Shown here: positions 4,131-63,374 of the stretch, piece after piece
Position numbering within the stretch: position 1 is the stretch's first letter
How the letters are laid out: the number at the start of each line of letters is the position of its first letter
Virus record (IMG/VR): IMGVR_UViG_3300012929_000001
DNA from: a virus
Reading direction: 5' to 3' (one strand)
DNA length: 64,000 nucleotides
Notes under the pieces: model-generated
What the model saw: the letters and a program-made list of their open reading frames with translations, nothing else
Told to the model about the DNA's origin: nothing
The model's database searches: none
Program-made: the position numbers and the translations under genes

Positions 4131-5565
4131 GTGGCTAGTGGGCCACGGCGGCGCGGGCATCTTTGCCGCCATCGGCAGCGGGAAGACGGCGGTCGTGCTG
4201 CGGGCGCTGCTGGCGCTGAAGGACGCCGGGCTCTTCCGCCGCGCCCTGGTCGTCGCCCCGCCGCGCGTGATGCGGCAGGTGTGGCCGCGCGAGGCCGCGG
4301 AGTGGGCGGGAACGGAGTGGGAGCGCGTTAAAGAGCTTCGCGTGGTGATGCTGCACGGCGAAGACAAGGACGCGCTGGCTATGCAGGACGCGGATATCTA
4401 CGTCATTAACGCGGAAGGTCTAAAGTGGCTTTTTGAAGATGGTAAATTCAAGCGCTTTAGATGCATGGTAATCGACACGTTCATCGTGGACGAAAGCACC
4501 CTGTTCAAAAACAGGAACACGAAGCGCTTCAAGATGGTGTCCAAGGTCCTGCCCTCCTTCCAGCGCCGCTGGATCATGACGGGGACGCCCAACCCGAACG
4601 GCTACATGAACCTCTTCCCGCAGATTTACCTGATCGACCTGGGGCTGGCGCTCGGGAAGTACGTCACCCGCTTCCGGCAGGAGTACTTCGTGCCCATCAA
4701 CGACTGGGAGTGGCGCTTGCAGGCCGGAGCGGATAAGCGGATTCAAGAGAAAATTGCACCTTACATTTTTCAACTCGATGCCGGCGACTACCGGGAAATC
4801 CCCGTAGAGCCCAACGTCGTGCGCGTGGACCTGCCCCCGGCGGCACGGAAGTTGTACAATAAGATGGAAGAAGAAATGTTGGTTGAGTTGAATAATCAAC
4901 GCTTCGTCGTGGCCGCGAACTCGGGCGCGGCCCATATGAAGTGTGCACAAATTGCCAACGGCGGATTGTATCACATGGTAGGTCCTGGCGGAATTGATTT
5001 TACCAATCTTAGCTTGGGGCAATCCTCTGCGAATACATTCAAAACTTTAAAGCGTACGTGGGAAAACTTGCACGAAGCGAAGACCGACGCCGTCGAGGAG
5101 CTCGTCGAGGAGCTAAACGGCTCGCCCGCGCTCGTCGTCTACGACTTCCTACACGACTTGGACCGCCTACGTAAGCGCTTCCCGCGAGCGCCCTTTATCG
5201 GCGGCGGAGTTTCGCTTAAGGAAAGTGAGCGGCTTTGCGACGCGTGGAACCGGGACGAGTTCCCGGTAATGCTGGTGCAGGCTACCAGCGTAAGCCGGGG
5301 GTTGAACCTGCAACGCGGATCGGCGCAGGACGTAATTTGGCACTCGCTCACCTTCGACCTGGAAGTTTTCCAGCAGCTGAACGGGCGGCTGGCGCGACAG
5401 GGCTCGAAGCATGACCGTATATTCTCACATCTTATTGTAGTCAACGGCACTACCGACGAAGCCCGTTTACGGGCGCTCCGTAGCAAGGACAAAACCCAGC
5501 AGGCATTTTTAGCGGCGCTGCGTGAATACGCGAAAAACCGACAAAAAGGCCGCAAAACCGCATAA
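3976..5565 (+). CDS. SNF2/SWI2-family DEAD-like helicase
   Basis: Q-motif-like HKYQKRGVEWL, motif I AAIGSGKTAV, motif II VDESTLFKN, motif III MTGTPNPNG, motif V ATSVSRGLNLQ, motif VI QLNGRLARQG. The start is uncertain: ATG 3976 or TTG 4012. Confidence 0.85.
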   Translation: MTLPSQTQKKKPLRLSKNVSASATRTRKSAVLKTAPQSSPRKPHKYQKRGVEWLVGHGGAGIFAAIGSGKTAVVLRALLALKDAGLFRRALVVAPPRVMRQVWPREAAEWAGTEWERVKELRVVMLHGEDKDALAMQDADIYVINAEGLKWLFEDGKFKRFRCMVIDTFIVDESTLFKNRNTKRFKMVSKVLPSFQRRWIMTGTPNPNGYMNLFPQIYLIDLGLALGKYVTRFRQEYFVPINDWEWRLQAGADKRIQEKIAPYIFQLDAGDYREIPVEPNVVRVDLPPAARKLYNKMEEEMLVELNNQRFVVAANSGAAHMKCAQIANGGLYHMVGPGGIDFTNLSLGQSSANTFKTLKRTWENLHEAKTDAVEELVEELNGSPALVVYDFLHDLDRLRKRFPRAPFIGGGVSLKESERLCDAWNRDEFPVMLVQATSVSRGLNLQRGSAQDVIWHSLTFDLEVFQQLNGRLARQGSKHDRIFSHLIVVNGTTDEARLRALRSKDKTQQAFLAALREYAKNRQKGRKTA

Positions 5566-5656
5566 AAATAAATGCTTTACAAACCGTAACGGATCGGTTA
5601 TACTGATGTTGTTATGGCGGTCCTTAAAGACGTCCGCTAACGAGGAGCAAGGAAAA

Positions 5657-6010
5657 ATGGCAAAAACACAAGTAGCGACCATCTGGCAAAGCGACCGTAT
5701 CGTGCGCGAGGTCCGTCCGGCGGACGGCAAGAAATTTTCCCTCCGAGAATTGCAGGATGCGGTCGGCGGTACCATTGAGCACGTTCCGCACACCCGCCCG
5801 TTTGCGTACTGCAACGAGGAGGGCCGCTTAATCGGGCTTCCCGTGAACGCGCTCGCCTCCCTCGAATTCCAGCAGATTCTCGTCGGCGACGTGATCCAGG
5901 TGCATACTGAAGTTAAACAAGAAAAACTCAATCCCAATTTGCACAACGAAATACGCCAAATCGGTAAACTCGTTGTGCAGCGTATGAAAGATAGGGTGAC
6001 CCGTGGATAA
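5657..6010 (+). CDS. DUF3846-like protein
   Basis: ATG preceded by GGAGCAAGGAAAA. LRELQDAVGGTIEHV...YCNEEGRLIGLPVN resembles the DUF3846 pattern as I recall it. Confidence 0.5.
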   Translation: MAKTQVATIWQSDRIVREVRPADGKKFSLRELQDAVGGTIEHVPHTRPFAYCNEEGRLIGLPVNALASLEFQQILVGDVIQVHTEVKQEKLNPNLHNEIRQIGKLVVQRMKDRVTRG

Positions 6011-6593
6011 CCAACAGTACCAGGGCAACCTCATCGACAGCCTCACCGCCACGGTCGCCCGCATGGTGCCGAAAAATAGCGGCGCGATTACCGCATATCA
6101 GCTAGGTGTGGTAAACGGCAACCTTTTCACTGATCCGGTAGCGGCCTTGACGTATATCCTCGCCGGAAACGCCTATGTTACGCTACGCAGCCGAGCAACC
6201 GGGACGCGCTATACCTACCGCGTCGCGCTGGCCAAGAAGACAGCGGAGCAGGCGGGGTTGTGGGCCGACGAACGAACAGACCTGCGGCGCTACTTTGTTT
6301 CGCTGCTGACCGGGCCAGAGAACATGGACGACTACTCCTATATCGGACTAGTGGAACAAGCGGGTACAAACCGCCCGACGTTCCGGCTGACGAAGAAGTC
6401 CAAGATGACCCGCGACTCAGCTCCAGTTAAGGCTGTTTCTTGGGCGGTGGAGAAGTTGGCGCTCGGCGTCCTACCAGACTCGCTGGAGGTCTGGCACGAA
6501 GGGCGTTGCGGACGCTGCGGCAGGCCCTTAACCGTACCGGAGTCCATCGCCGCCGGAATCGGTCCAGAGTGTGCTAGTAGGATGGGCCTATGA
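6003..6593 (+). CDS. Protein with a C-terminal DUF6011-like Cys motif
   Basis: C-terminal GRCGRCGRPLTVPESIAAGIGPEC matches the CxxCgRxLtdpeSi..GiGPxC motif I associate with DUF6011. Confidence 0.5.
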   Translation: MDNQQYQGNLIDSLTATVARMVPKNSGAITAYQLGVVNGNLFTDPVAALTYILAGNAYVTLRSRATGTRYTYRVALAKKTAEQAGLWADERTDLRRYFVSLLTGPENMDDYSYIGLVEQAGTNRPTFRLTKKSKMTRDSAPVKAVSWAVEKLALGVLPDSLEVWHEGRCGRCGRPLTVPESIAAGIGPECASRMGL

Positions 6594-6802
6594 CGATCCA
6601 CTGGGATTCCTCCGTGGAAGTCAAGGACGCGGCGGTGGAGCGGCGGGAGTGGCGGTACGACACCATCCTACTGGAACGTTCGCGGCTGAGGCGGCGGCTC
6701 GACTGGCTCCTGGGGGCAACCATCATCATTGCGATGGCGGCAATGGGATGGACGGCGCTTTACCTGGCGGTAACGGCGATCAAGGCGGCGCGGGTGCTGT
6801 AA
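6590..6802 (+). CDS. Small single-pass membrane protein
   Basis: ATGA coupling to the upstream ORF. Hydrophobic helix LLGATIIIAMAAMGWTALYLAV. The competing frame here is Gly/Ala low-complexity. Confidence 0.45.
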   Translation: MTIHWDSSVEVKDAAVERREWRYDTILLERSRLRRRLDWLLGATIIIAMAAMGWTALYLAVTAIKAARVL

Positions 6803-6831
6803 AAACTAGACTTACAATAAAGGAGCTCGAC

Positions 6832-7698
6832 ATGGCAGGAATTAAGTTGAAGAAGCGGAAAGTGAAAGTCCCCAGCGCCCGGGCTGGACGCGTCCTCGCT
6901 GGGCTTGTCCGTGGCAATAAACCCAACGCCGTCGTAAGCGGCCCTCCCCCGCTCGACGAGCAGAAAGCCGCCGCCGCGCCCGTCTGTCCCTGCGGTAAGC
7001 CGGGCTATAAGATACAGGGTATCGACGGTGACTTCTGTAGCGAGGCGTGCTACGAGGAGCACCGCCGCCCTAAGGCTCCGCTGGGCTCCGTAGGGCCAAT
7101 TAATGCCCTAAAGCCCGGGCAGCGGTTCCGCTGCGATATGCCAAAGATGGGCAATGATGGAGGTCACAGTCTTGCGGGTTATCTGGTCTATTGCACAGCA
7201 GGTGGGGCGCTAGTCGAGCTTGACAGTCCGCCCAGCCGCCGTCAGTTTAAGGACGCTCGCAGTGGGGCTGCCGTAGACTTTACTGCCGCTCGCCGGACGC
7301 GCGTAAACTGGTCTTTGCTGACGGAAGTCACTGTTTTGGAAGGAACAAAAGATTTCTCTTTACAATCTGCGAATGATGGAGTACAAAGGTCACGTAGTAC
7401 AAATCTAAACAGCAGGACACCCGAGGAGGGTATCGATATGGCAACCAAGAAAAAGGCAGCAAAGAAGACGAAAGCGAACGGAGAAGCCAAAGGTAAGCGC
7501 GGACGCGCCGGGCAGTTCGGTCCCGAAATGAAGATCAAAGTTCTCGCCGACAAGAACCCCAAGCGCGAAGGGAGCGCCGCCAGTGAGCGTTTCGAGCTCT
7601 ACGGCAAGAACAAGACGGTGGAGTCTTTCCTGGCAGCCGGGGGCAGCAGCCGCGACCTGGCTTACGACGTTACGCACGGTCACGTCGAAGTCAAGTAA
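6832..7698 (+). CDS. Hypothetical protein with a Cys motif and a Lys-rich internal segment
   Basis: AAAGGAG RBS before ATG 6832. CPCG...CSEAC motif. An in-frame internal GGAGG+ATG sits at 7438 (MATKKKAAKK...). The gene is followed by a terminator hairpin. Confidence 0.5.
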   Translation: MAGIKLKKRKVKVPSARAGRVLAGLVRGNKPNAVVSGPPPLDEQKAAAAPVCPCGKPGYKIQGIDGDFCSEACYEEHRRPKAPLGSVGPINALKPGQRFRCDMPKMGNDGGHSLAGYLVYCTAGGALVELDSPPSRRQFKDARSGAAVDFTAARRTRVNWSLLTEVTVLEGTKDFSLQSANDGVQRSRSTNLNSRTPEEGIDMATKKKAAKKTKANGEAKGKRGRAGQFGPEMKIKVLADKNPKREGSAASERFELYGKNKTVESFLAAGGSSRDLAYDVTHGHVEVK

Positions 7699-7771: not shown

Positions 7772-9517
7772 GTGGAATTCCAAATAAAAGTCCGCGAGCT
7801 TACCGAACTGTTAAAGCGGACTGGCAACAAGAACGAGAAAATCCGCGAAGCTATTCGCTATAAGAACGAGGACTCGCGGACCACGCTGGCCACTACCGTC
7901 TTCGCGCCCGGGGAGCTTAAGACGCTAGCCGCCGTAATCGACGCCCGGCTAGCGGAGGCACCGACCGATCGGCATAATAAATGGGTAAAGGGTCGCTTAC
8001 GCGCTTACTTCGAATTGTTCGAAGGCAAGGTTAGTTCCGCGACAAAGGTTAAGAACCTACAAATGCTTCCCATTGCCATTCAACGTTACCTGGAAGAATC
8101 TGCACCGCATCGTTGGATTTTCCGAGAGAATAGCGACCACATCCTGCTCCCCTATCTAGTTACGGATATTAAGTACTTTAAGCGCCGCCGCGAACGTGGA
8201 GGGTATGTCTACCCGGCCTACGTGAAAATAGATTTTCTTGGTTACAAGAACGGCTCTCGAGAAAGCGAAAGCGCGAGCATTGATGAGGACGCGTTTACGC
8301 CGACTACAGTTCCTAAGATTTTCGAGCAGCTCGGACTTAGTCATGAAACGCCCGCTGCTGTAGCAGAATACACGGCGTCGTTGGAAACCTATGGAGTTTA
8401 CCAGAATGCTTGTGGCGTCCAGGCATTGGCTATCGGAGTGGGCTTCGGTATACAACTTAGCCGTTGGCAATCTCGTTACAGCCAGGTGGAAATGGTCCGT
8501 AACGGTCAGGCGACAAAAGTAGTTCTTGACCCGCGAACCGAGGAGCTTGAAGACAATAAGGGTGATGACGAGCCCCGCTTCTACACAGTTAATTTCTGGG
8601 AAGACGTACCCGACCGTAACGGCCTAACCGCGCGGGGCATTGAACTCGATGAAGACGAGGATGAAGACGAGGATGAAGACGATCCAGACGAGCCGGAGAA
8701 GCCGAAACTCGAAGTTATGCTCCCGCTGCATCCTTATTTGTACTGCTTCGATCTGGACACTCATAGCTGGATTAACCTGCACGCCGCTAACCTACAACCG
8801 TACGATTGGGATAAAACGCTATTACAAAAGTTGATCTTACCGCAAGAGCAGAAAGACCTACTACAAATTCTCATCAGTTCCAGCGGGCACTCCATCGAAG
8901 ACATTGTACGCGGCAAAATGAGCGGTGTAATCGTCTTGGCTACGGGAGCGCCCGGCACGGGTAAGACGCTTACCGCAGAAGTGTTCTCGGAGTACATTGA
9001 GAAGCCGCTCTACAACGTGCAGTGTTCCCAGCTAGGTCTTAGCGTCGACACCATCGAAAGCAACCTACAAGAGATTCTCCAGCGGGCGTCACGATGGGGC
9101 GCAGTCCTACTCATTGACGAATCCGACGTTTACATCCGTAACCGGGGCGAGGACATAACCCAAAACGCAATTGTGGGTGTGTTCTTGCGGCTGCTCGAAT
9201 ACTACCGGGGCGTTCTGTTTATGACTAGCAATCGCGGGAATATCGTTGACGATGCCATTCTCTCGCGAGCCACAGCCTGGATTCAATACCAACTACCCTC
9301 CGCCGAGCTTCTCGCTACAATCTGGAGCGTGCTGTGCCGGCAATATCGTGTGGAGTTGAAAACGAAAGAAATTGCACAGCTAGTAAAAGAGCTTCCCAAC
9401 ATCAGCGGGCGTTCTGTACGCAACATTCTTAAGCTGGCAACAATGTTGAAGAAAGAGAAAGCTACGGTTGCTGACATCATTAACGTGAGTAAGTATCAAG
9501 CCTTGGAGCAAAAGTGA
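7772..9517 (+). CDS. AAA+ ATPase with a large unknown N-terminal domain and an acidic linker
   Basis: Walker A GAPGTGKT, Walker B LLIDESD, classical AAA second region of homology (SRATAW...). Start taken as the first GTG after the terminator, but CTG 7760 is possible. DEDEDEDEDEDD tract at ~8640-8700. Confidence 0.8.
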   Translation: MEFQIKVRELTELLKRTGNKNEKIREAIRYKNEDSRTTLATTVFAPGELKTLAAVIDARLAEAPTDRHNKWVKGRLRAYFELFEGKVSSATKVKNLQMLPIAIQRYLEESAPHRWIFRENSDHILLPYLVTDIKYFKRRRERGGYVYPAYVKIDFLGYKNGSRESESASIDEDAFTPTTVPKIFEQLGLSHETPAAVAEYTASLETYGVYQNACGVQALAIGVGFGIQLSRWQSRYSQVEMVRNGQATKVVLDPRTEELEDNKGDDEPRFYTVNFWEDVPDRNGLTARGIELDEDEDEDEDEDDPDEPEKPKLEVMLPLHPYLYCFDLDTHSWINLHAANLQPYDWDKTLLQKLILPQEQKDLLQILISSSGHSIEDIVRGKMSGVIVLATGAPGTGKTLTAEVFSEYIEKPLYNVQCSQLGLSVDTIESNLQEILQRASRWGAVLLIDESDVYIRNRGEDITQNAIVGVFLRLLEYYRGVLFMTSNRGNIVDDAILSRATAWIQYQLPSAELLATIWSVLCRQYRVELKTKEIAQLVKELPNISGRSVRNILKLATMLKKEKATVADIINVSKYQALEQK

Positions 9518-17793: not shown

Positions 17794-20700
17794 TTAGTTG
17801 ACTGTAAGAGCGTAGGGCTGGGTGTCCGTCTGGTGCGCTGCGTCTTCGACGCCTGCCGAGAACGTCGAAGTACCCGGCACCGTCGGTACACCGGAGATCG
17901 CGCCTGTCCCGGCGTTTAAGGTTAGCCCCGTCGGCAGCGAACCCGTCACCACGGTCCAACGCTTGTACGGGGAAGCTCCTGCCGTGGCGTGGAGCGTAAT
18001 CGTGTAAAAGGCCCCGTTCGTTGCGGCGGGAAGGACGCAGTTCGCACCGTTCGTGCAAGTGACGTTCCCGAAGAACCCGTCAATAATTAGTGTAGGGTAT
18101 ACGAAGGGGTAAGCCACTCCGGCAGTGTCAGAGAGCACCGTGGACACGTTCGCGCCCAAGTCCAGGCCGTCGCCGAACCCAATCCCCTTGTAGGGGCTGT
18201 TGGACGGTAGCTGCATATCGTTCGTGGGCCCGCCGTTGGGGTCGTAATTGTTAAAGACGCTGTTGTAGCCCGCCGCGCGGTCGCAGGCGTCGAGCGAGCC
18301 CGTGCCGACCGGAGCGCTCCAGGCCCACGTGGCGGGCGTGCCCGGCGTGCCCGTGCAGTGCCCGTTAACCGGGTCCTGGGCGGCGGTCGTGCAGCTACAG
18401 GCCTCGACCGTGTTCGAGCCCAAAAGATTGACGTTAGGAAGTTGGGTCGTCTGCCCCGACCAAATGCCCTGTAGCGTAACGTTACGATGCACCGAGTAGT
18501 TGCAGCCCGTTACGGCGTCGTGCCCCGCGCAGCCGTAGAAGCCCAGGCCGAACGCCAGCGTGTTCACGGCGAAGTTCCCCGAGCCGTTGGTGACGTGTAG
18601 GGCGGCGGCGGCGAGATTATTGTTAAGGGTTAATCCTGACGTGAACATTGGCACCACGCCGTTGGCGCACAACGTCCCACTCGTGGGATTCCTACATACA
18701 TTGTCGAAGATGCCAGCGAGCCCAGACTGGTGGCTGGACGTAAATCCTATAATCTGCACCGAATTGTGCGATACGTTAAGGTCCGAGGGCGCGGTGGAGG
18801 GCACCGCCGTGCCGCTCAAGGTTTGGAACCAATAGCCGTTGTTGCAGCAGGAGTTGTTGTTATCGAAAACGGAGGAATTAATGTCGTAGCCCAGCATGTC
18901 GTGGACGTAGATTTCGTGTACGCCCAAAGCCTCCGATCCGCCGTCGTCGCCAGCGCTGGAAATTTGCATGCCATTCGCTGTATGAGCGATGATGCCGTAC
19001 CTTACCACCACGTCCCGCACGACGGCGAAGGGGCTTAAGGCTCGCTTATAAGCCAGCGGCACCACACCCACGACACTGGTGGAGTTTTCCACCACTTGCA
19101 CTTGATCCGAATTGATCACCTGCTGTATATGGTAGTAGGTGCCGCCCAGCCCGCCGACAATGACGGCGCAGCGCGTCTGGTCTCCCGCCGAAGCGCAGTG
19201 CTTTACGTAAGACCCGGGACACTGCGGGTTGCTGATGGCGGCGGCGGTGGCGGCGTGGGTTTCGGAGACGGTCGTAGCGCTAATGGTGAAGGAAGTGGAA
19301 GTAGAGGCTGTGATCACGCCGCGCTTCGGGCTGCTGGAGCCGTTGGCGTCGTTCACGAAGCCCTTAATTTCCACGGCCCAACCGACTAGCGCGTTCGCCG
19401 CGCCCCCGGTAATGGTGCCCTGGTAGACGCCCGTCGTGTTGACCGAGGTAAGCGTAAACGGGCCCGGCTGCGCAGCCGTTCCGGCAGTGCAAGGGAAGGC
19501 GACGATCTCGCCGCAGCTGGAGACCGCAGTACCTGTTCCGGTCCAGTCCGGGATGGCGTTGGGGTCGAAGCCGCAGGTGAACATGTTACCGCCGCTGGAC
19601 GAGCATGCCACGCCCGTTTTCAGGCAGTTAATGTAGAACAGACCGCTTGAAGTCGAACCCGTTAATACGGAGCCAGAAAGAGCGCCGCTGAGCGAAAGTT
19701 TCTGACTTTGGTTCTTCGGAGTAATCAGCAGCCCCGCGCCGGGTTGGTCCGACTGGAACCCCTGCCAGGAATAGTAGTTAACATTCGCCTCCCATACGCC
19801 CCGCACCGTGGACTTCGTTTCGCCCAGGTTCTTCGGGTCCCAGTGCGGCTCGGACTGCGTGGCCTTCCCTGCTGCGACGCCGCTTTCCGTAACCGTCGTA
19901 GCAGCGAAAGAAATTGTGGAGGCCGTCGACGCCGTCACCAGGGACACGGCGAGGTTGTTTGCGGCGTTCGTAAACCCAGAAGTCTTAAACGTTTTCCCCA
20001 CCAGCGCGTTGTTGGTGCCGCCGATAATCGTTCCCGTGAACACGCCCGTCGTGTTTACCGCCGTAAGCGTGATCGCGGGCGACTGGGACGCAAGGAACCA
20101 GGCCAGCGGGTGCATGCAAAAGTTCCGCCTTACTTCTGTGTCCGAAACCACGCCGTCCGGGTTATCCGCCGTCGGGAAGTACGCCTCCTGCCCCCCGCCC
20201 CAGAACCAGCACTCCCCCGCCGAAGCCCCGAAGTTATTAACAATCTTATGGGCATACTGCGGGAACGGGCCCACGCCGCCCGCCACCATCTGCGAGTCGA
20301 TGCAGGTGGTGCCAGAGGGCGCGTTGGCGCACATGACGGGGCCAACCCAGGAATTAATGAGCGATAAGTGGGTACCGTTAAAATTTACTCCCCCCTGGCA
20401 CTCGACGCGAAACAATGGGTCATCCTGACAGTGTATGAACACCCGGTCGGCGATCATGTGGTCCGCCCCGGCCAACTCCAAGAGCTTGTGCGACGTGCGT
20501 GTGCCCGCGACCGTAGTAAGGTCTAGCCCTTGCAGCCGCCAGCCTTGGTTGCAGGGGAACGTGGTAACGTCGCAGGTGGGGATTACAGCGTTGCCGTCGT
20601 AGGCCGCGAGCGCGGGCGTGGTAGCGCTGGTGCTTTGTATCTTGAACAGACGGTTCTTGGGTCCTCCCCGCGCCGTGCAGTCGGCGGAGTAGTCCGGGTA

Positions 20701-56493: not shown

Positions 56494-56685
56494 CTACCTT
56501 TCCGCAGCGATTTCCCCGATCTTCCGCACCAACTCCGTCCAACTCACGTTCGGGTCGACATGCAGTATGTCGAACTCGTCGAGACGCATATCATTGAGGT
56601 TAATGCGCACGTGGTAGTCAGCCCCGTGCCCTGCGCCCGGATCGTTAGTACGGATGGCTGTGATGACAAACGTAGGACGATCCAT
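56494..56685 (-). CDS. Small hypothetical protein
   Basis: ATG at 56685 overlaps the TerL stop (TAATG). Confidence 0.4.
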   Translation of the reverse strand: MDRPTFVITAIRTNDPGAGHGADYHVRINLNDMRLDEFDILHVDPNVSWTELVRKIGEIAAER

Positions 56686-58229
56686 TATTGCCCCAGCTTC
56701 GCCCACATCTCCAAAGCCGCTATTCCTGCTCCGAGATAGATTGCCGCCTGCGTCATCATATCGACCATATCATCAAACGCCGCCGTGGGGAACTGTGTAA
56801 TCTGCGCGATAAAGGGCTCCGTCCACGCCGCCGTACGATCTACGTACCAATCGTGCGCTTGCCACTCCGGCGCTGCCGCAAACATACGTGCTATCTTTCC
56901 GCCTTGCGGCTCAATAGCTATGATACCGGTAAGATCCTGTTGAAGCTTAGAAATTACAGCCGGGCCGTTAGCCTTGTCCTCTACGATTACTGCCGTAGCC
57001 TGCCACTTCTCCTTCATACGGCGTATTGCTAACTCCGTACCCGTAACATCGAGATGCTCGTTAATTACCTCCAACACAAAACGCTTCCGCCCGCGCGTCC
57101 CTATAGCACCCATAGCCACGTAGTCCGAGGTCTTAAGGTCTTTAAACGAACAGTCGACCGATACAATAACACGGTCGAAAAACTCACCATGTTTAGCATC
57201 AGGCAACGCTTCGTCCAACGCCCCAGTAAGCGGATCGCGTCCGCCGTAGTACATAACGTCAGCACGCTTAATCAAATTGCCTTCCAGCGGAGCCGGGCGC
57301 TGCTGATACTGACCGGAGAAGACCAAGCGGTTACGCTTTTTCTCCTCTACAATCTCGGGCGGGAAACGGTCAGGTTGCAGCACGTCGCCCTTTTTGCGCG
57401 TTACTACACGCTTCGATATAGGAAACTCCCAACGTTCATCCTTCTCCGCGATAAGCGGAATTTCGATCTTCTTCCACAGACCTTTCTCTTCTTCCGTAAC
57501 GAAGCCCGTAGTGTCGAGCTCGTGCAGACGCTGCATAATGATAATGATCGATGCCGTAGCGGGGTTATTAAGTCGCTGCTTAAGTGTGTGGTTAACCCAA
57601 CGATTCGCCGACAAACGCTCGACGTCCGAAAGCGACATCTCCGAAGACATCGGATCGTCGAGAATCGCCGTATCACCGCCTTTACCTTCCGCGCCCGACC
57701 CGGTACTGGTGGCAATCATACGCCCGCGCTTGTCGTTATCGAACTGTGTAGTAAGGTTGCGATCAGCACTAAGCGAGAACCGATTACCCCAGAGCGCCCG
57801 ATACCAATCGCTCATTAACAGGTTGCGCCGCGCTACACTGTGGTCCGTACTAAGCGCAAGACTGTGGCTCCCACACAGAAACTCGTGCTTCGGATCGGTG
57901 GTCCAAACCCAACACGGAAACGACATTACGCCCAATGTAGACTTAGCCGTGCGCGGGGGGACATTAATGATAAGCCGACGGCACTTCCGCTGCCGCACCT
58001 GCATAAGATGCTCACAAAGTAAGTCATAATGCCACGACCAAGTAAGCTCTCGTCCGGGGTTGTAGAACTTCCACGCTTCCCTAAAGAATAGCGATAGGTC
58101 TTGTTCCATATCACTAACAATACGCAACGACTCACGCTGCTCCACGAGCCGCGCAATCTCGGCCACTTCCCACGGGCGAGCCGTGGCGATTAGAGCGTGC
58201 AGGTCGAGCGTGGAGAGTTGTGTACTCAT
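56685..58229 (-). CDS. terL: Terminase large subunit
   Basis: Walker A-like PPRTAKST, Walker B ILDDP, C-terminal RNaseH-like nuclease motifs (VSVDCSFK, VIVEDKANG). Confidence 0.85.
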   Translation of the reverse strand: MSTQLSTLDLHALIATARPWEVAEIARLVEQRESLRIVSDMEQDLSLFFREAWKFYNPGRELTWSWHYDLLCEHLMQVRQRKCRRLIINVPPRTAKSTLGVMSFPCWVWTTDPKHEFLCGSHSLALSTDHSVARRNLLMSDWYRALWGNRFSLSADRNLTTQFDNDKRGRMIATSTGSGAEGKGGDTAILDDPMSSEMSLSDVERLSANRWVNHTLKQRLNNPATASIIIIMQRLHELDTTGFVTEEEKGLWKKIEIPLIAEKDERWEFPISKRVVTRKKGDVLQPDRFPPEIVEEKKRNRLVFSGQYQQRPAPLEGNLIKRADVMYYGGRDPLTGALDEALPDAKHGEFFDRVIVSVDCSFKDLKTSDYVAMGAIGTRGRKRFVLEVINEHLDVTGTELAIRRMKEKWQATAVIVEDKANGPAVISKLQQDLTGIIAIEPQGGKIARMFAAAPEWQAHDWYVDRTAAWTEPFIAQITQFPTAAFDDMVDMMTQAAIYLGAGIAALEMWAKLGQ

Positions 58230-58378: not shown

Positions 58379-59161
58379 TCAATCCATCAACTCCCGCTGC
58401 CGCCGAGCGGCAATCTTAGCCAGTACACTCATAATCTGATCGTCGATACCTTCTACCGTCATCGTCAACGGTTTCCCGCCCGGCCCGCTGACCTCTAAGC
58501 GACCATTACCCACCAGCTTCTTAAACTCTAGGTAGAGACGAATGGCTGCGAGCTTATCATAGGGCTTATACTTACGCACCTGCCCGGAAGCCGCCGAGCT
58601 AGCCGAGTCAACTTCACCTTCTTCTTTTACTCCCAACGCCAAACCATACTCTTCTTCAACTTCTATATGCGCCAAAGCTAGTGCCGTTTCATCGTCAAGC
58701 GCATTAATGTCCTTACCTACCTTACGCGGATCGAAGTCAATAATGGCACCCAGCCGTTGCAGCAGCCACGCCGTCTCAGCATCAACCTTTTCCAACTGCT
58801 CGTTAAGCTGTTCGTCAATAGCACGCAACACAGCGGGGTGCCGCAGTAATTGCGACCCAGCAGTTGCGCCTACATAGCCTGCGTCTCGTGCCGTCTTACC
58901 GATAGCTCCTTTTTCGCCGGCAATCATACGAGGAACTACCGTAGCTGCAAAAGCTTCCTGTCGAGGGGTAAGATCGTTTTCCGGGTTCTTCTTAAATAGA
59001 GGATTCGGCGGCTTCGCAATACGTCGCGTGCGGAGCCCGTGGGGCGTAGCGATTACTTCTTCGTGACGCTCACGAGGAACCCGCTTACGAGTACTACCAT
59101 CGCGTGAGACTGCCGTCTCTAGTGCCAGCACCTTACGCGGTTTGCGTTTCTTCGCCGGCAT
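58379..59161 (-). CDS. terS: Terminase small subunit
   Basis: LTPRQEAFAATVV...KTARDAGYVGATAGSQLLRHPAVLRAI resembles the Terminase_2 HTH region. Located upstream of terL. Confidence 0.7.
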   Translation of the reverse strand: MPAKKRKPRKVLALETAVSRDGSTRKRVPRERHEEVIATPHGLRTRRIAKPPNPLFKKNPENDLTPRQEAFAATVVPRMIAGEKGAIGKTARDAGYVGATAGSQLLRHPAVLRAIDEQLNEQLEKVDAETAWLLQRLGAIIDFDPRKVGKDINALDDETALALAHIEVEEEYGLALGVKEEGEVDSASSAASGQVRKYKPYDKLAAIRLYLEFKKLVGNGRLEVSGPGGKPLTMTVEGIDDQIMSVLAKIAARRQRELMD

Positions 59162-59163
59162 AG

Positions 59164-59241
59164 CTAAAAGCGCCGCCGTCCGTAGTAAGCAGCGAACAGC
59201 GCCAGTAAAACAAAAGCAATTAGGTAATACTTCGGAGTCAT
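59164..59241 (-). CDS. Micro-ORF encoding a 25-aa hydrophobic peptide
   Basis: MTPKYYLIAFVLLALFAAYYGRRRF. ATGA-coupled to the upstream ORF and ends 3 nt before the terS ATG. Confidence 0.3.
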   Translation of the reverse strand: MTPKYYLIAFVLLALFAAYYGRRRF

Positions 59242-59702
59242 ACTGGCAACACTACTCGATGGGAGTTCCAAAGCGTACGCCGTAACACGTCGCCGTTCGA
59301 CTCCTGATAGCGAGCCGGATACGAGAGATCTAAATTCATAGGTTCGCGTGGCGGTAGTAACACGTGGGCTTCGGCAGCTCGGCGGTCGGCGGTAGCTACT
59401 ACAGCGTCGGCGGCGCGATAACGCTGCTTTACCGAAGCCCACGTTTCGACGGCGACCAGCACGATGCCGCGTCGAAGGTCTAAAAGGTCGAGGGGGGTAG
59501 CCGCCCGGTCGGCTACGAGCCTACCTGCAAAGACTGGAGCGGCCCGGTGGACTGTAGGGAGGAGCCCGGGTAAGAATACGGGTATGCGCGAACGACGGCG
59601 AATTTGGGGCTGTTCAGGGCCACTCTTGGATTGAGTACCGGGTGCGAGACTTACGCCTCTAGCGCGGAATCCTGTTCCGCCAGTTGTAGTGTTAGCTAAC
59701 AA
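59238..59702 (-). CDS. Hypothetical first ORF of the late operon (start uncertain)
   Basis: Open frame with only a TTG at its 5' end and Arg-rich composition. It may be shorter or non-coding. Confidence 0.3.
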   Translation of the reverse strand: MLANTTTGGTGFRARGVSLAPGTQSKSGPEQPQIRRRSRIPVFLPGLLPTVHRAAPVFAGRLVADRAATPLDLLDLRRGIVLVAVETWASVKQRYRAADAVVATADRRAAEAHVLLPPREPMNLDLSYPARYQESNGDVLRRTLWNSHRVVLPV

Positions 59703-59889
59703 AGTTAAAGCTACTCAGCTAAACATACATCTACGCGGGGGAGTGTCCGGTGGGCGCTCTCACACACCCACCGAACTGCTCGTTCAACCAGCCACAACTA
59801 ACCAGCCGTTCGGGTACGTTGGATAGAACTCTACGGTAGAAAAATCTAAAAGTAAACGCCTTTTTTACGACATTGTTTTAGACCACATC

Positions 59890-59950
59890 GGTTACGCAAG
59901 TTACGCGAGGCCTGCTCGGCGGGCGATGATAGGGGAAAAGTGCGTAACCG
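59890..59950. repeat. GTTACGC repeat cluster A (two direct copies plus one inverted copy)
   Basis: GGTTACGCAAGTTACGCG at 59890-59907 and the inverted GCGTAACC at 59942-59949. Confidence 0.5.
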
Positions 59951-60023
59951 TGTCTGAATGAAAGCGAAAAACGTGTTTGGATCGATAAAATAGATGGTTA
60001 GCAAATCCTATTACAACACAACA

Positions 60024-60147
60024 GGTTACGCAGTTACGGTTACGTCCTTCCAAACCTATATTGTCCTATGTACCCCTTTAAAATTATAATATTCGGTAGT
60101 AGTCCATAGAGTATAGGTTTTAGTCCGCGTAACCGTAACCGCGTAAC
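60024..60147. repeat. ~123-bp interrupted palindrome built from triple GTTACG repeats flanking an AT-rich core (candidate origin or operator)
   Basis: GGTTACGCAGTTACGGTTACG (60024-60044) is mirrored by CGCGTAACCGTAACCGCGTAAC (60126-60147), with 1 mismatch over 20 nt. The inner arms AAACCTATA (60052-60060) and TATAGGTTT (60112-60120) share the same centre, ~60086, inside AAAATTATAATATT. Confidence 0.7.
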
Positions 60148-60322
60148 TTGTAGAAATACGAACTCAAGTCTTTATCGATATGTAAAGCACTCAACAGATA
60201 AGTTACCTAGTATTTTATCGAGTCCGCGGAACTAGAAAAATAAGCCTTTACTTTTTTATAAAACCCGCGTATACCTACCTCCCTAGCTCGAACCCGAGAA
60301 AAAAGCGCTCCCAGGAGATTAC

Positions 60323-60703
60323 ATGGTAGTATCAACTGACGTACCAGAAGAAATAATGCGAAAGATCGATGCCCTTATAAAAGGTGGTGAACCCCCCGTC
60401 TGGCCCTTCAAGACTCGAACAGTAATTCCGGCTGGTTTACCGCCCGTCGAAAAACGGAAGCTCGACGCCTTTCTTAAAGCTAAGGCTGAATTCGACAAAG
60501 CTGAGTGCGACGCCTCCGCGCTACGCTCCCGCTCTGCCGTATTACGTATGATTTTAATGGCGTATTTTAAGTACACCGCGCCTAAAAAACCCTCGGTTAC
60601 ACCCACTGCTGTATACCAACGGCAGCGTCGAAAACGGCACAACGAGGCCATGACAAGAAATCTTACCGTTGTTCCTATTTCTACGTCCGCAGAACAAATC
60701 TAA
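60323..60703 (+). CDS. Putative ribbon-helix-helix (CopG/Arc-like) DNA-binding protein
   Basis: AGGAG RBS. RSRSAVLRMILMAYF resembles the RHH helix motif (SRSefiR.al). It is the first gene downstream of the repeat region. Confidence 0.45.
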   Translation: MVVSTDVPEEIMRKIDALIKGGEPPVWPFKTRTVIPAGLPPVEKRKLDAFLKAKAEFDKAECDASALRSRSAVLRMILMAYFKYTAPKKPSVTPTAVYQRQRRKRHNEAMTRNLTVVPISTSAEQI

Positions 60704-60739: not shown

Positions 60740-62821
60740 ATGCTCTCGCTTCCCGCAGTCCGTAAGCTAATGCACCTAAAAATCGCGGAAAGCACCCTTA
60801 CCCCCCGTGACGCCGACCGCCTCGGATTCTTACCCTCTATTACACCCCCACCCGGTATTTCCGTCCCCGCTGCTGGGTTTTCCATTCCCTACTTCGACCT
60901 TAAGGGTCGCCCCATTGATTTCTTCCGCTTCCGGACGTTATCCTTAAACGGCTTCGCGGCCATCGTCGATCCGAAGAAGCAGATTCGATACACTCAGCCC
61001 GCTGGGAAAAGTCCGCGCGTCTACTTCTCCCCTTTTCTGGATTGGCCCGCTGCGCTAGGAGCGCCCGGTGCCGAGCGAGCAGTAATTCTTACGGAAGGGG
61101 AGAATAAAGCCAACGCTGCGTGCAAAGCCGGATATTGCTGCCTGGGGCTGGGAGGCGTGTGGAACTTTAAGGCTGCTACGGACTCGCTCTGTACCGACTT
61201 GGATCAAATCGACTGGAAGGGTGCAACTGCGTATATTGCCTACGACAGCGACGCCCGCTCTAACGTTAACATTATACGCGCCGAAAATGCCCTGGCTCGC
61301 GAGCTCTTAGAGCGCGGAGCTTACATCGTTATTGTACGTATCCCCTGCCTCGTGCCGGGTAAGAAGACCGGCATTGACGACTATCTATTAGCAAAAGGTC
61401 CGGAGGAGTTCGCCGACCTGTTGGCCACCGCCGCTAAAGAACCTTTCGATCGCTCCCGCGCCCTACACGAGCTGAACGAGCGTTACGTTTTTATTCGCCA
61501 TCCACAAATGGTGCTCGAGTACGAAACCCTAAAGCGCACTACATCCAATTCCTTTATCCACGCTCTCGGCGCCAACATACTACTGGAAGAGACTGTAATT
61601 GATACTAAAGGCAACGCCAAGGTAGTTAAGAAGCCCGCCGCTAAGCCCTGGATCGACTGGCCCCAGCGCGGGGAAGTGCAAGAGACTACCTATAAGCCTG
61701 GCCATCCTACGGTTACTGGTAACCGACAATTAAATCTGTGGCCTGGGTGGGGTATCGCAGATACAGACATACACAAAGGCGACCTACACCTGTGGACACG
61801 GCTGCTGGACTATATCTTTACTGGCACGCTACCTGCCCATCGACGCTGGTTCGAGCAATGGCTGGCCTACCCAATACAGAACCCCGGGGCTAAGATGTTT
61901 ACGGCGGTAGTGGTGTGGGGGGTAACGCAGGGAACGGGCAAAACGCTGATAGGCCACACACTAGGTCGGCTGTACGGGCGCAACTTCTCCGAGATAGAAT
62001 CCGCAGACCTAACCGGCAGCTTTAACGAATGGGCCGAGAACAAGCAATTCGTAATGGGCGACGAGATAACGGGCGACGAAAAGCGTACCACTGCCGACCG
62101 CATGAAGTCGGTAATTACCCGTAACGTTATCCGCATCAACGCCAAGTTCATTCCCACCTACACCGTCCCCGACTGCATTAACTATTATTTTACCAGTAAC
62201 CATCCCGACAGCTTCTTCATCGACGACAACGATCGACGCTATTTTATTCACGAAGTCGCTGCCGACACGCCCCTACCCGATGAGTTCTACCGCGAATATG
62301 ACGCGTGGTACAAGTCCTCCGCCGTTGGCGCTCTGCTGTACCATCTTAGAAATGTAAGTCTGGAAGGCTTTAACCCCGCCGCCCACGCGCCCACTACGTT
62401 AGCTAAAATGAATATGGTCGCCGCCGGACGCTCGGACCTAGCCAGCTGGGTCGCTATGCTAAAAGAAGAGCCCGACGCCGTGCTACGCACATCTCCCTCC
62501 GCCGCGCCCATTAAGCATCGCTGGTTTACCACCGGGGAGTTGTACCAGCTGTATACCGGAGAGACAGCCAACCATTCCGAACATCGCTCTCGATTGACAA
62601 AGAACGGTCTAATGCGCGAACTGCTTCGACAGAAATTCCCCCAGGTTAACTTCGGTCAACCCGTTAAAACCTTTAACGGCGCACAGCGGCTGTGGGCCGT
62701 GCGCAAGCCGCGCGAGATTATCGGGTACAGTCTAGTCCAGGTAGCTAAAGGTTACGCCGAGGACCGCGCGGCGGACGCTAAGGCGTTGGCCGAGGTAAAA
62801 CGCAAGATGGGGGTGAAATGA
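60740..62821 (+). CDS. Primase-helicase: Toprim (DUF3854-like) N-terminal domain plus SF3 / D5-P4-type helicase
   Basis: Toprim VILTEGENKA...AYDSDARSN. Walker A GVTQGTGKT, Walker B FVMGDEITG. Confidence 0.85.
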   Translation: MLSLPAVRKLMHLKIAESTLTPRDADRLGFLPSITPPPGISVPAAGFSIPYFDLKGRPIDFFRFRTLSLNGFAAIVDPKKQIRYTQPAGKSPRVYFSPFLDWPAALGAPGAERAVILTEGENKANAACKAGYCCLGLGGVWNFKAATDSLCTDLDQIDWKGATAYIAYDSDARSNVNIIRAENALARELLERGAYIVIVRIPCLVPGKKTGIDDYLLAKGPEEFADLLATAAKEPFDRSRALHELNERYVFIRHPQMVLEYETLKRTTSNSFIHALGANILLEETVIDTKGNAKVVKKPAAKPWIDWPQRGEVQETTYKPGHPTVTGNRQLNLWPGWGIADTDIHKGDLHLWTRLLDYIFTGTLPAHRRWFEQWLAYPIQNPGAKMFTAVVVWGVTQGTGKTLIGHTLGRLYGRNFSEIESADLTGSFNEWAENKQFVMGDEITGDEKRTTADRMKSVITRNVIRINAKFIPTYTVPDCINYYFTSNHPDSFFIDDNDRRYFIHEVAADTPLPDEFYREYDAWYKSSAVGALLYHLRNVSLEGFNPAAHAPTTLAKMNMVAAGRSDLASWVAMLKEEPDAVLRTSPSAAPIKHRWFTTGELYQLYTGETANHSEHRSRLTKNGLMRELLRQKFPQVNFGQPVKTFNGAQRLWAVRKPREIIGYSLVQVAKGYAEDRAADAKALAEVKRKMGVK

Positions 62822-63035: not shown

Positions 63036-63374
63036 ATGGTTGGCATTCCCAAAAAGCAACCCCCACCGCCGACGCTTTATACACTCTTCCGGCTTCCGCC
63101 CGGGGCGGACGCGGAGCGGATTCACGGTGTCTATATCGCAATCGCTAGCGATATGCACAACATGGGCAACTTTGCGCCGGAGTTTACAGAGGTCACGCTG
63201 GCGTGGGGTGTGCTAAAAGACCCCGCCCGACGCCGACAGTACGACGCGCAACTGGAGGCCGACGGGTACAACTGTAGGCGCTGTCTGGGCAAGGGTGAAC
63301 TGTGGCAGCTTAAGGCGCGGGGGTACGTAGACTGCAAGGAGTGTGGGGGGACGGGGCGGAGGACCGAAAAATAA
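63036..63374 (+). CDS. DnaJ-like protein: degenerate J-domain (no HPD) plus two CxxCxGxG zinc-finger repeats
   Basis: LYTLFRLPPGADAERIHGVYIAIASDMH...AWGVLKDPARRRQYD follows the J-domain layout, but DMHNMG replaces HPD. CRRCLGKG and CKECGGTG match DnaJ zinc repeats. Confidence 0.6.
   Translation: MVGIPKKQPPPPTLYTLFRLPPGADAERIHGVYIAIASDMHNMGNFAPEFTEVTLAWGVLKDPARRRQYDAQLEADGYNCRRCLGKGELWQLKARGYVDCKECGGTGRRTEK

Follow-up and report, generated by a model that had tools for sequence, protein, structure and literature searches.

Opposed GTTACG repeats upstream of a primase-helicase gene form a probable satellite-type replication origin in a large phage

Why should a single hexamer, GTTACG, be crowded into one control region of a phage genome? 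The window analysed here is a 64,000-nucleotide (nt) stretch of the IMG/VR virus record IMGVR_UViG_3300012929_000001, and the element in question lies within it at 59891-60147. It occupies the divergent intergenic region between the leftward packaging and late operon and the rightward early and replication operon. An initial annotation, made from the letters alone, had regarded these repeats as a candidate replication origin or master operator. Our analysis indicates that the element is probably a phage replication origin of the type used by two groups of phage satellites, the Staphylococcus aureus pathogenicity islands (SaPIs) and the phage-inducible chromosomal islands (PICIs), at which the adjacent primase-helicase encoded at 60740-62821 would load itself. 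It is most likely a new example of a known origin design and not a new kind of element. The first half of the original proposal is thus favoured by a conserved architecture and an association with superfamily 3 (SF3) helicases, whereas the master operator loses ground because the promoter-like sequence between the repeats is not conserved.

Nine exact copies of GTTACG were found within 59891-60147 when both strands were scanned, against approximately 0.2 expected in 257 nt; the remaining 63.7 kb of the window contain 50 copies. On the plus strand they start at 59891, 59900, 60025, 60033 and 60039, and on the minus strand they are located at 59943, 60128, 60134 and 60142. An exact hexamer scan placed all four groups where they had originally been reported, although the count of ten copies has to be reduced to nine, which is also what the original list adds up to. 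The judgement that the clustering is far above chance holds. This is the densest cluster of any hexamer across the 64-kb window, and in 100 simulated windows (first-order Markov) no hexamer formed a cluster of more than 7 copies per 300 nt, the top cluster of each simulation having 4-7.

The core of the element consists of two arms of three iterons each. The left arm (60021-60044, plus strand) carries copies at 60025-60030, 60033-60038 and 60039-60044, spaced by 8 and 6 nt and facing the centre. The right arm (60128-60151, minus strand) carries copies at 60128-60133, 60134-60139 and 60142-60147 in the opposite orientation. As had been noticed at the outset, these last two groups are mutually inverted: the 24-nt arms are 92% complementary and are separated by 83 nt. 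Two inner arms, AAACCTATA (60052-60060) and TATAGGTTT (60112-60120), follow the symmetry of the outer ones, so that all four share one dyad centred at 60086 inside ATTATAAT, in agreement with the symmetric element originally described. The 83-nt spacer (60045-60127), our proposed melting zone, has an AT content of 65%, compared with 42% for the window. Outside the core, two auxiliary direct iterons, GTTACGC-AA-GTTACGC, are present with a 9-nt period approximately 120 nt to the left (59891-59906, plus strand), together with a single inverted auxiliary iteron, GCGTAAC (59942-59948, minus strand). The intergenic gap had been described as AT-rich and approximately 620 nt long; the length stands, given that the open reading frame (ORF) at 59238-59702 is a gene, whereas the AT-richness is limited to the right-hand part, at approximately 59950-60300.

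Single-strand folding of the element gave z = -7.2. Explanations in terms of RNA were rejected, as the corresponding searches were empty: no Rfam match in the entire window passed the gathering thresholds, those in 59100-60400 with E values up to 10 were at the level of chance, and no transfer RNA or transfer-messenger RNA was found. A second, small GTTACG cluster is present at 18475-18514, inside a minus-strand ORF of 1246 amino acids (aa). It comprises the palindrome CGTAAC|GTTACG and a third copy 28 nt away, and it probably arose by chance.

A comparison of repeat geometry in related genomes, which had been suggested as a check, revealed that the design is kept while the repeat word drifts. 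In the related locus L092, whose primase is 78% identical, the arms read GGTTACAcaGTTACGGTTACA ... CTGTAACTGTAACtcTGTAACC. The 3+3 order, the spacing and the orientation are as in the window, and position 6 of the hexamer has changed from G to A (GTTACA) in five of the six copies. L098 is closer still, with 93% identity in the product of the first rightward ORF (ORF126, 126 aa, 60323-60703, plus strand) and largely identical DNA between the right arm and that ORF (60148-60322). Its core reads CTTACG / ATTACG / CTTACG followed by the mirror set, so that position 1 is altered in all six copies, and the number, order and spacing of the repeats are those of the window core. Opposed arrays are also found at greater distance. 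L094 (primase 52% identical) carries AGTTACGY with an 8-nt period in a 2+2 arrangement, with a spacer of approximately 85 nt, 81% AT, and auxiliary copies on both sides, and L096 (primase 49% identical) carries TGTTTCAR in arrays approximately 100 nt apart. The auxiliary copies on the terminase side likewise recur, at 2713-2750 in L094 and at approximately 3470-3505 in L092. Overall, spacers in relatives measure 64-109 nt and are 63-83% AT.

The same holds more loosely across the wider family. Among 51 IMG/VR relatives with primases 33-47% identical, many exhibit phage-specific inverted arms upstream of the primase gene, with AT-rich spacers of 50-135 nt; the word GTTACG itself is not conserved among them, the architecture being conserved instead. 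We applied a strict test to 48 non-redundant loci, in which at least two tandem exact 6-mers had to be present on each side, 30-150 nt apart, within 1.5 kb upstream of the primase gene. Eight of the 48 loci passed, compared with none in an equally long control stretch running from the primase start onward. Further loci have longer single-copy inverted arms flanking AT-rich spacers. A longer contig of the L098-type phage was sought by a relaxed pattern scan of viral contigs, with no match, and the 90% cluster of the window's primase contains only the window's own protein.

One member of this group is a cultured phage. In Stenotrophomonas phage AXL3 (MT536174.2; L100 1-135 and L101 1-210), a dyad of approximately 133 nt spans the origin of the sequence record. 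Its arms, TGTTACAGAAAGCGGAATAAAGGTAGCCCTATCT and AGAGAGGGCTGGCTTTATTCTGTATTCTGCAACA, flank a 65-nt spacer with 66% AT in a locus with 36% AT, directly upstream of gp65 and the primase gene gp64 and divergent from the terminase genes. AXL3 offers a cultured system in which the origin model can be tested.

With regard to other mobile elements, an exact-pattern scan of public collections for GTTACGGTTACG-N60-90-CGTAACCGTAAC revealed the same arrays next to replication genes of unrelated elements. In L052 and L068, 5 nt separate the array from the 3' end of a 770-aa D5_N+DUF5906 gene, and in L091 it is found 15 nt 3' of a 772-aa gene of the same composition. In L090 it is flanked by a D5_N+DUF5906 helicase on one side and a primase-like ORF on the other, in L073 it lies 370 nt 3' of a Pox_D5-type C-terminus, in L076 60 nt 5' of a CHC2 primase, and in the L060/L064 group array and gene overlap, at the 3' end of a DUF3631 gene. 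In L078 it follows, after approximately 65 nt, the 3' end of a DUF5906 helicase gene whose product fits the family profile of the window's protein (E = 4e-38), with a P4-type integrase nearby. Once unrelated pattern matches had been set aside (a multi-copy GGTGCCGGTGTTACGGTTACG hairpin family, telomere-like tandem repeats, coding repeats and GAGGCCCGTATCG hairpins), all remaining mobile-element arrays adjoined replication genes, at 5-370 nt where the two are separate. A match in L057 with an AT-rich spacer near an XRE-type gene falls in none of these classes, and the matches in L080 (terminator-like) and L086 were likewise set aside or left outside them. Judged by this genomic company, the opposed-repeat design goes together with genes for SF3 helicases and primases. 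BLASTP detected no similarity between the primase-helicases of the window and of L052, nor between the window protein and the helicases beside the other arrays. The shared hexamer is therefore most simply explained as sampling from a large pool of such origins.

Several of these loci have features of their own. L078 (5191-9256) encodes a helicase-only member of the family (5665-7152) and a P4-type integrase-like ORF (7994-9256, assigned by eye); its GTTACG 3+3 array (5500-5597) is identical to that of the window and is followed by a small winged-helix ORF (5191-5493). This locus resembles an integrative element and may be a satellite using the same origin type. In L060, L064, L066, L067 and L070, the spacer of the array holds the ribosome-binding site and the start codon of the next gene, so that origin-like repeats are interleaved with coding signals. 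The palindromes with GGTGCCGGTGTTACGGTTACG arms have GC-rich spacers of 60-90 nt and were encountered in L054, L055, L059, L063, L065, L071, L072, L075, L082-L085, L088 and L089. They occur on at least three scaffolds of Gammaproteobacteria bacterium PRO2 and on several large metagenome contigs, and resemble repetitive extragenic palindromic (REP) sequences or miniature inverted-repeat transposable elements (MITEs).

If the element is an origin, the most plausible reader is the 693-aa primase-helicase (60740-62821, plus strand). Pfam and PHROG assign it a DUF3854 (Toprim-like) and a DUF5906 (SF3 helicase) domain, the SF3 core being clear, and over this core PDB sequence matches were obtained to 6k9c/6k9e, which are annotated as 'Primase'. 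In total, 1458 homologues of the DUF3854-DUF5906 protein were detected. A winged-helix-like module is predicted at its C-terminus, at approximately residues 595-653 (62522-62698, plus strand). The AlphaFold2 model of residues 540-693 is confident, with a predicted local distance difference test score (pLDDT) of 87.7, and its top Foldseek matches in the PDB are mostly winged-helix DNA binders (FoxP3, FOXN1, PadR, MarR, RTP and Orc1/Cdc6; E 0.08-0.5). The C-termini of the helicases beside the other GTTACG arrays align to this module, and that of L073 is Pox_D5/RFX-like according to Pfam. The primase-helicase is thus implicated by association, and its C-terminal domain is a putative reader of the repeats by analogy with known systems. 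The initial annotation had named two possible binding partners, this protein and the ribbon-helix-helix (RHH)-like product of ORF126. The SF3 association favours the former, and the latter is disfavoured by its constant N-terminus and its absence near the unrelated arrays. A homologue of the primase-helicase, P0021, is 1049 aa long and contains the homing-endonuclease and intein-type Pfam domains PF05204, PF05203 and PF14528, which suggests that this helicase is interrupted by an intein.

Several observations weigh against this assignment or against the origin itself. The Foldseek E values are weak (>= 0.08), and the origin-binding domain of the P4 alpha protein was not matched in PDB sequence or fold searches, among the top 50 listed. 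Relatives with differing repeats retain the putative recognition helix, TxNGLxRELRRAG, in well-conserved form. Conversely, the C-terminal domains of L094 and L078, which share the hexamer, are no closer to that of the window than those of relatives with other repeats, and no protein region was found to track repeat identity when L012, L094 and L078 were compared with other relatives, which amounts to few comparisons. The position is also different: the element precedes the primase-helicase gene by 589 nt, and ORF126 is placed between the two, whereas in SaPIs, L052, L078 and L091 it is immediately 3' of the gene. Only a minority of the family (the eight of 48 loci given above) carries repeats by the strict test. 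In the closest relatives the ORF126 family co-occurs with the element, so that synteny alone does not speak against ORF126 there. Finally, the GC skew changes at approximately 60 kb, where transcription also switches direction, and thus provides no independent evidence of an origin.

That co-occurrence is one reason to ask whether the arrays are instead operators of a transcription switch, through which ORF126 or another regulator controls the divergent operons. We consider this unlikely as the main function, but it may coexist with an origin, as in iteron plasmids, where initiators regulate themselves. The divergent setting is what such a switch would occupy, and the ORF126 family accompanies the element in L092, L094, L095 and L097. 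ORF126 has a sub-threshold match to RHH_1 (E=0.045) and contains an 'SRSAVLR' motif; there was no Pfam or PHROG match at default thresholds, a PDB profile search returned nothing, and the AlphaFold model is poor (pLDDT 50), the alignment being too shallow. In addition, the only consensus sigma-70-like promoter match in the region, TTGTCC-N18-TATAAT, falls in the spacer (60061-60090). These hexamers have changed to CTGTGA and TATAAA in L098, the closest relative, and a promoter in the spacer was rejected as the main function of the element on account of this lack of conservation. A different block, TTTACT-N17-TATACC preceded by GCG (60247-60275, plus strand), lies approximately 100 nt to the right of the arrays and approximately 45 nt before the start of the first ORF in the rightward direction. 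L098 carries it unchanged (100% identity), and it can still be recognised in L092 (TTGCAA-N17-TATACA) and L094 (TTTACG-N17-TATAGT); the consensus scan missed it because the second hexamer has no final T in the window. From this pattern of conservation, the block is likely the early promoter, which would place that promoter outside the iteron element. The protein side of the operator explanation encounters similar difficulties. The N-terminal sequence MVVSTDVP would be the DNA-reading strand if ORF126 belonged to the RHH class; the window, L098 and L092 share it exactly, despite their differing repeats. Homologues of ORF126 were detected in L092, L094, L095, L097 and L098 only, and none near the unrelated GTTACG elements, some of which lie in co-directional gaps. 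The inverted element is also present in L012, L005, L003, L021 and L039, where no small ORF precedes the primase gene. Because the N-terminus is constant across differing repeats and no homologue accompanies the unrelated arrays, ORF126 is disfavoured as the reader; it is probably a regulator. Judging from the conserved promoter-like block outside them, the arrays do not appear to be classic operators, and any regulatory effect may be a by-product of initiator binding. A 19-nt inverted repeat (59848-59866 and 60237-60255, 84% complementary, 370 nt apart) brackets the iteron region. Both copies contain TTTACT, the right one being part of the conserved promoter-like block, and the left one, read leftward, gives TTTACT-N17-TAGAGT, which is not obviously conserved in L092. 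The two copies may represent twin divergent promoters.

The neighbourhood also invites the idea of a pac or cosB-like packaging site, with the small terminase binding the opposed repeats in the manner of the lambda R sites or SPP1 pacL/pacR. Terminase genes are indeed the leftward neighbours here and in most relatives, and some of the IMG/VR contigs stop shortly before the primase gene. These ends carry no information on termini, since two independent assemblies of the genome break at different places, and they were rejected as evidence for that reason. Moreover, the core is approximately 860 nt from the start of the small terminase gene terS, with another conserved gene in between. The arrays of L052/L068, L078, L090 and L091 are all located beside helicase genes, and for L052/L068 and L078 the ORF lists of the few kb inspected include no terminase-like ORF. 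The relevant case is L094, which shares the GTTACG repeats and a 52% identical primase with the window, and whose TerS and TerL have no detectable similarity to those of the window; the repeats therefore follow the primase and not the packaging genes, and a packaging site is very improbable. We regard it as equally improbable that the arrays are bound by a host factor, or that they form a structural palindrome acting as a cruciform or single-strand priming hairpin, with no phage-encoded reader at all. A host factor would account for the same hexamer beside helicases that share no recognisable recognition residues, and the strong single-strand fold reported above would suit a structural role. 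The repeat word has changed among near-identical phages and is highly variable in the family as a whole, and this turnover fits a fast-evolving cognate partner better than a conserved host protein. Palindromy alone, for its part, cannot explain why tandem hexamers are kept while single positions in them shift in concert.

Under the preferred interpretation as an origin, subunits of the primase-helicase would recognise the hexamers, with the C-terminal winged-helix-like domain as the probable point of contact, and one helicase hexamer would assemble on each arm. The 83-nt AT-rich spacer between the two hexamers would then melt, and the Toprim-like domain could prime bidirectional synthesis. The copies at 59891-59948 may act as auxiliary binding sites.

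The genome is that of a full-size phage. It measures approximately 72.5 kb and encodes a portal protein, terminases, a Mu-F-like head protein, long tail-region ORFs and a DNA polymerase; from the differing break points of the two assemblies we conclude that the map is circular and that the contig ends are uninformative about termini. In a nucleotide search against known phages only a short primase stretch was matched, at 67%. To the left of the element, all on the minus strand, are the genes for the large (56685-58229) and small (58379-59161) terminase subunits, followed directly by an ORF for a 25-aa hydrophobic peptide, MTPKYYLIAFVLLALFAAYYGRRRF (59164-59241), which has a similar counterpart in L092. 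Next to it, also on the minus strand, is ORF 59238-59702, which has no Pfam or PHROG match. We accept it as a gene because it is conserved at the protein level in L092 (54%), L096 (39%) and L095 (28%). One gene caller predicts no gene in the corresponding 1160 nt of L099 (8423-9583, equal to window positions 59162-60322). To the right, a few genes downstream of the primase-helicase gene, a small protein that combines a DnaJ domain with a zinc ribbon is encoded (63036-63374, plus strand). It recurs at the equivalent position in L092, L093, L095-L097 and in AXL3, as gp60.

This study provides a concrete candidate origin for a phage group that is large, for the most part uncultured, and includes AXL3 and Pseudoxanthomonas phage PW916. 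We found no published description of an origin for this primase-helicase phage group, and the paper on AXL3 describes none (PMC7504290). If the assignment is true, the satellite-type origin design of opposed short iterons around an AT-rich core is modestly broadened to full-size phages. The concerted repeat changes also supply a naturally occurring set of specificity variants with which DNA reading by self-loading SF3 helicases could be studied. A further idea is speculative and, in our estimation, has a rather low chance of being correct: origin specificity may turn over quickly and be shared with satellites, so that phages and helicase-only satellites would compete or escape and the origin would act as a determinant of incompatibility or hijacking. 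The hint comes from the concerted one-position change between near-identical phages and from the helicase-only element L078 with its identical array.

How, then, does this element compare with known systems? In iteron plasmids such as pPS10, R6K, F and P1, initiator sites stand beside an AT-rich unwinding element, and inverted copies are often autoregulatory. The adjacency of repeats and AT-rich DNA is common to both. However, plasmid iterons are direct repeats of 17-22 bp with helical spacing, bound by RepA-type initiators that recruit the host DnaB, whereas the repeats here are 6-8 bp long and form opposed sets, and the helicase is encoded by the phage. No RepA-type family appeared in Pfam and PHROG scans of the nine ORFs between 56685 and 63737. 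Opposed protein-binding repeats next to terminase genes are known from the lambda cosB R sites and from SPP1 pacL-pacR; in contrast to these, the repeats described here track the primase-helicase and not the terminase.

Other SF3 helicases also act at origins with repeats. The GAGGC pentamers bound by the large T antigen of SV40 and other polyomaviruses, and the E1 sites of papillomaviruses, form the core origins of such helicases. They too are inverted arrays of 5-6 bp sites beside AT-rich DNA, on which two SF3 hexamers are placed head to head. The viral arrays abut and the origin-binding domain is N-terminal to the helicase, whereas the arrays in the window are 83 nt apart. In the phage satellite P4, the alpha protein is a fusion of primase and SF3 helicase with a C-terminal origin-binding winged helix, which acts on ori and crr repeats. 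Short repeats in both orientations are common to P4 and the present element, and P4 also has a second repeat cluster elsewhere. The P4 repeats are octamers, TGTTCACC, in another arrangement, and its crr lies kilobases away.

The closest correspondence is with the SaPIs and PICIs. The reading of the window's C-terminal domain as a winged helix comes from structural modelling, and the predicted arrangement is a primase-fused SF3 helicase as in PriRep5 of SaPI5. Satellite origins consist of penta- or hexanucleotide iterons on both sides of a centre rich in AT, at least two per side, with the two sides oppositely directed (PMC9371898); their reader is an SF3 Rep or Pri-Rep protein, which recognises them with its C-terminal winged helix (Ubeda et al. 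2007, 2012, summarised in PMC9371898); these systems are also described, with a mention of P4, by Fillol-Salom et al. 2018 (PMC6092414). The element described here likewise has short iterons, of penta- to octanucleotide length in both cases, in two opposed sets (3+3) around a centre of approximately 80 bp that is AT-rich relative to the window (65% vs 42%), and in both cases the iteron word differs between related elements. There are also differences. The SaPI origin is immediately 3' of rep, whereas the element lies 589 nt upstream of its gene in a divergent gap between terminase and replication genes; in addition, the primase module is DUF3854 (Toprim-like) and auxiliary iterons are found outside the core. 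Satellites are small, integrated and dependent on a helper, whereas this is a phage of approximately 72 kb with structural and packaging genes of its own, so that the two have the design of the origin alone in common.

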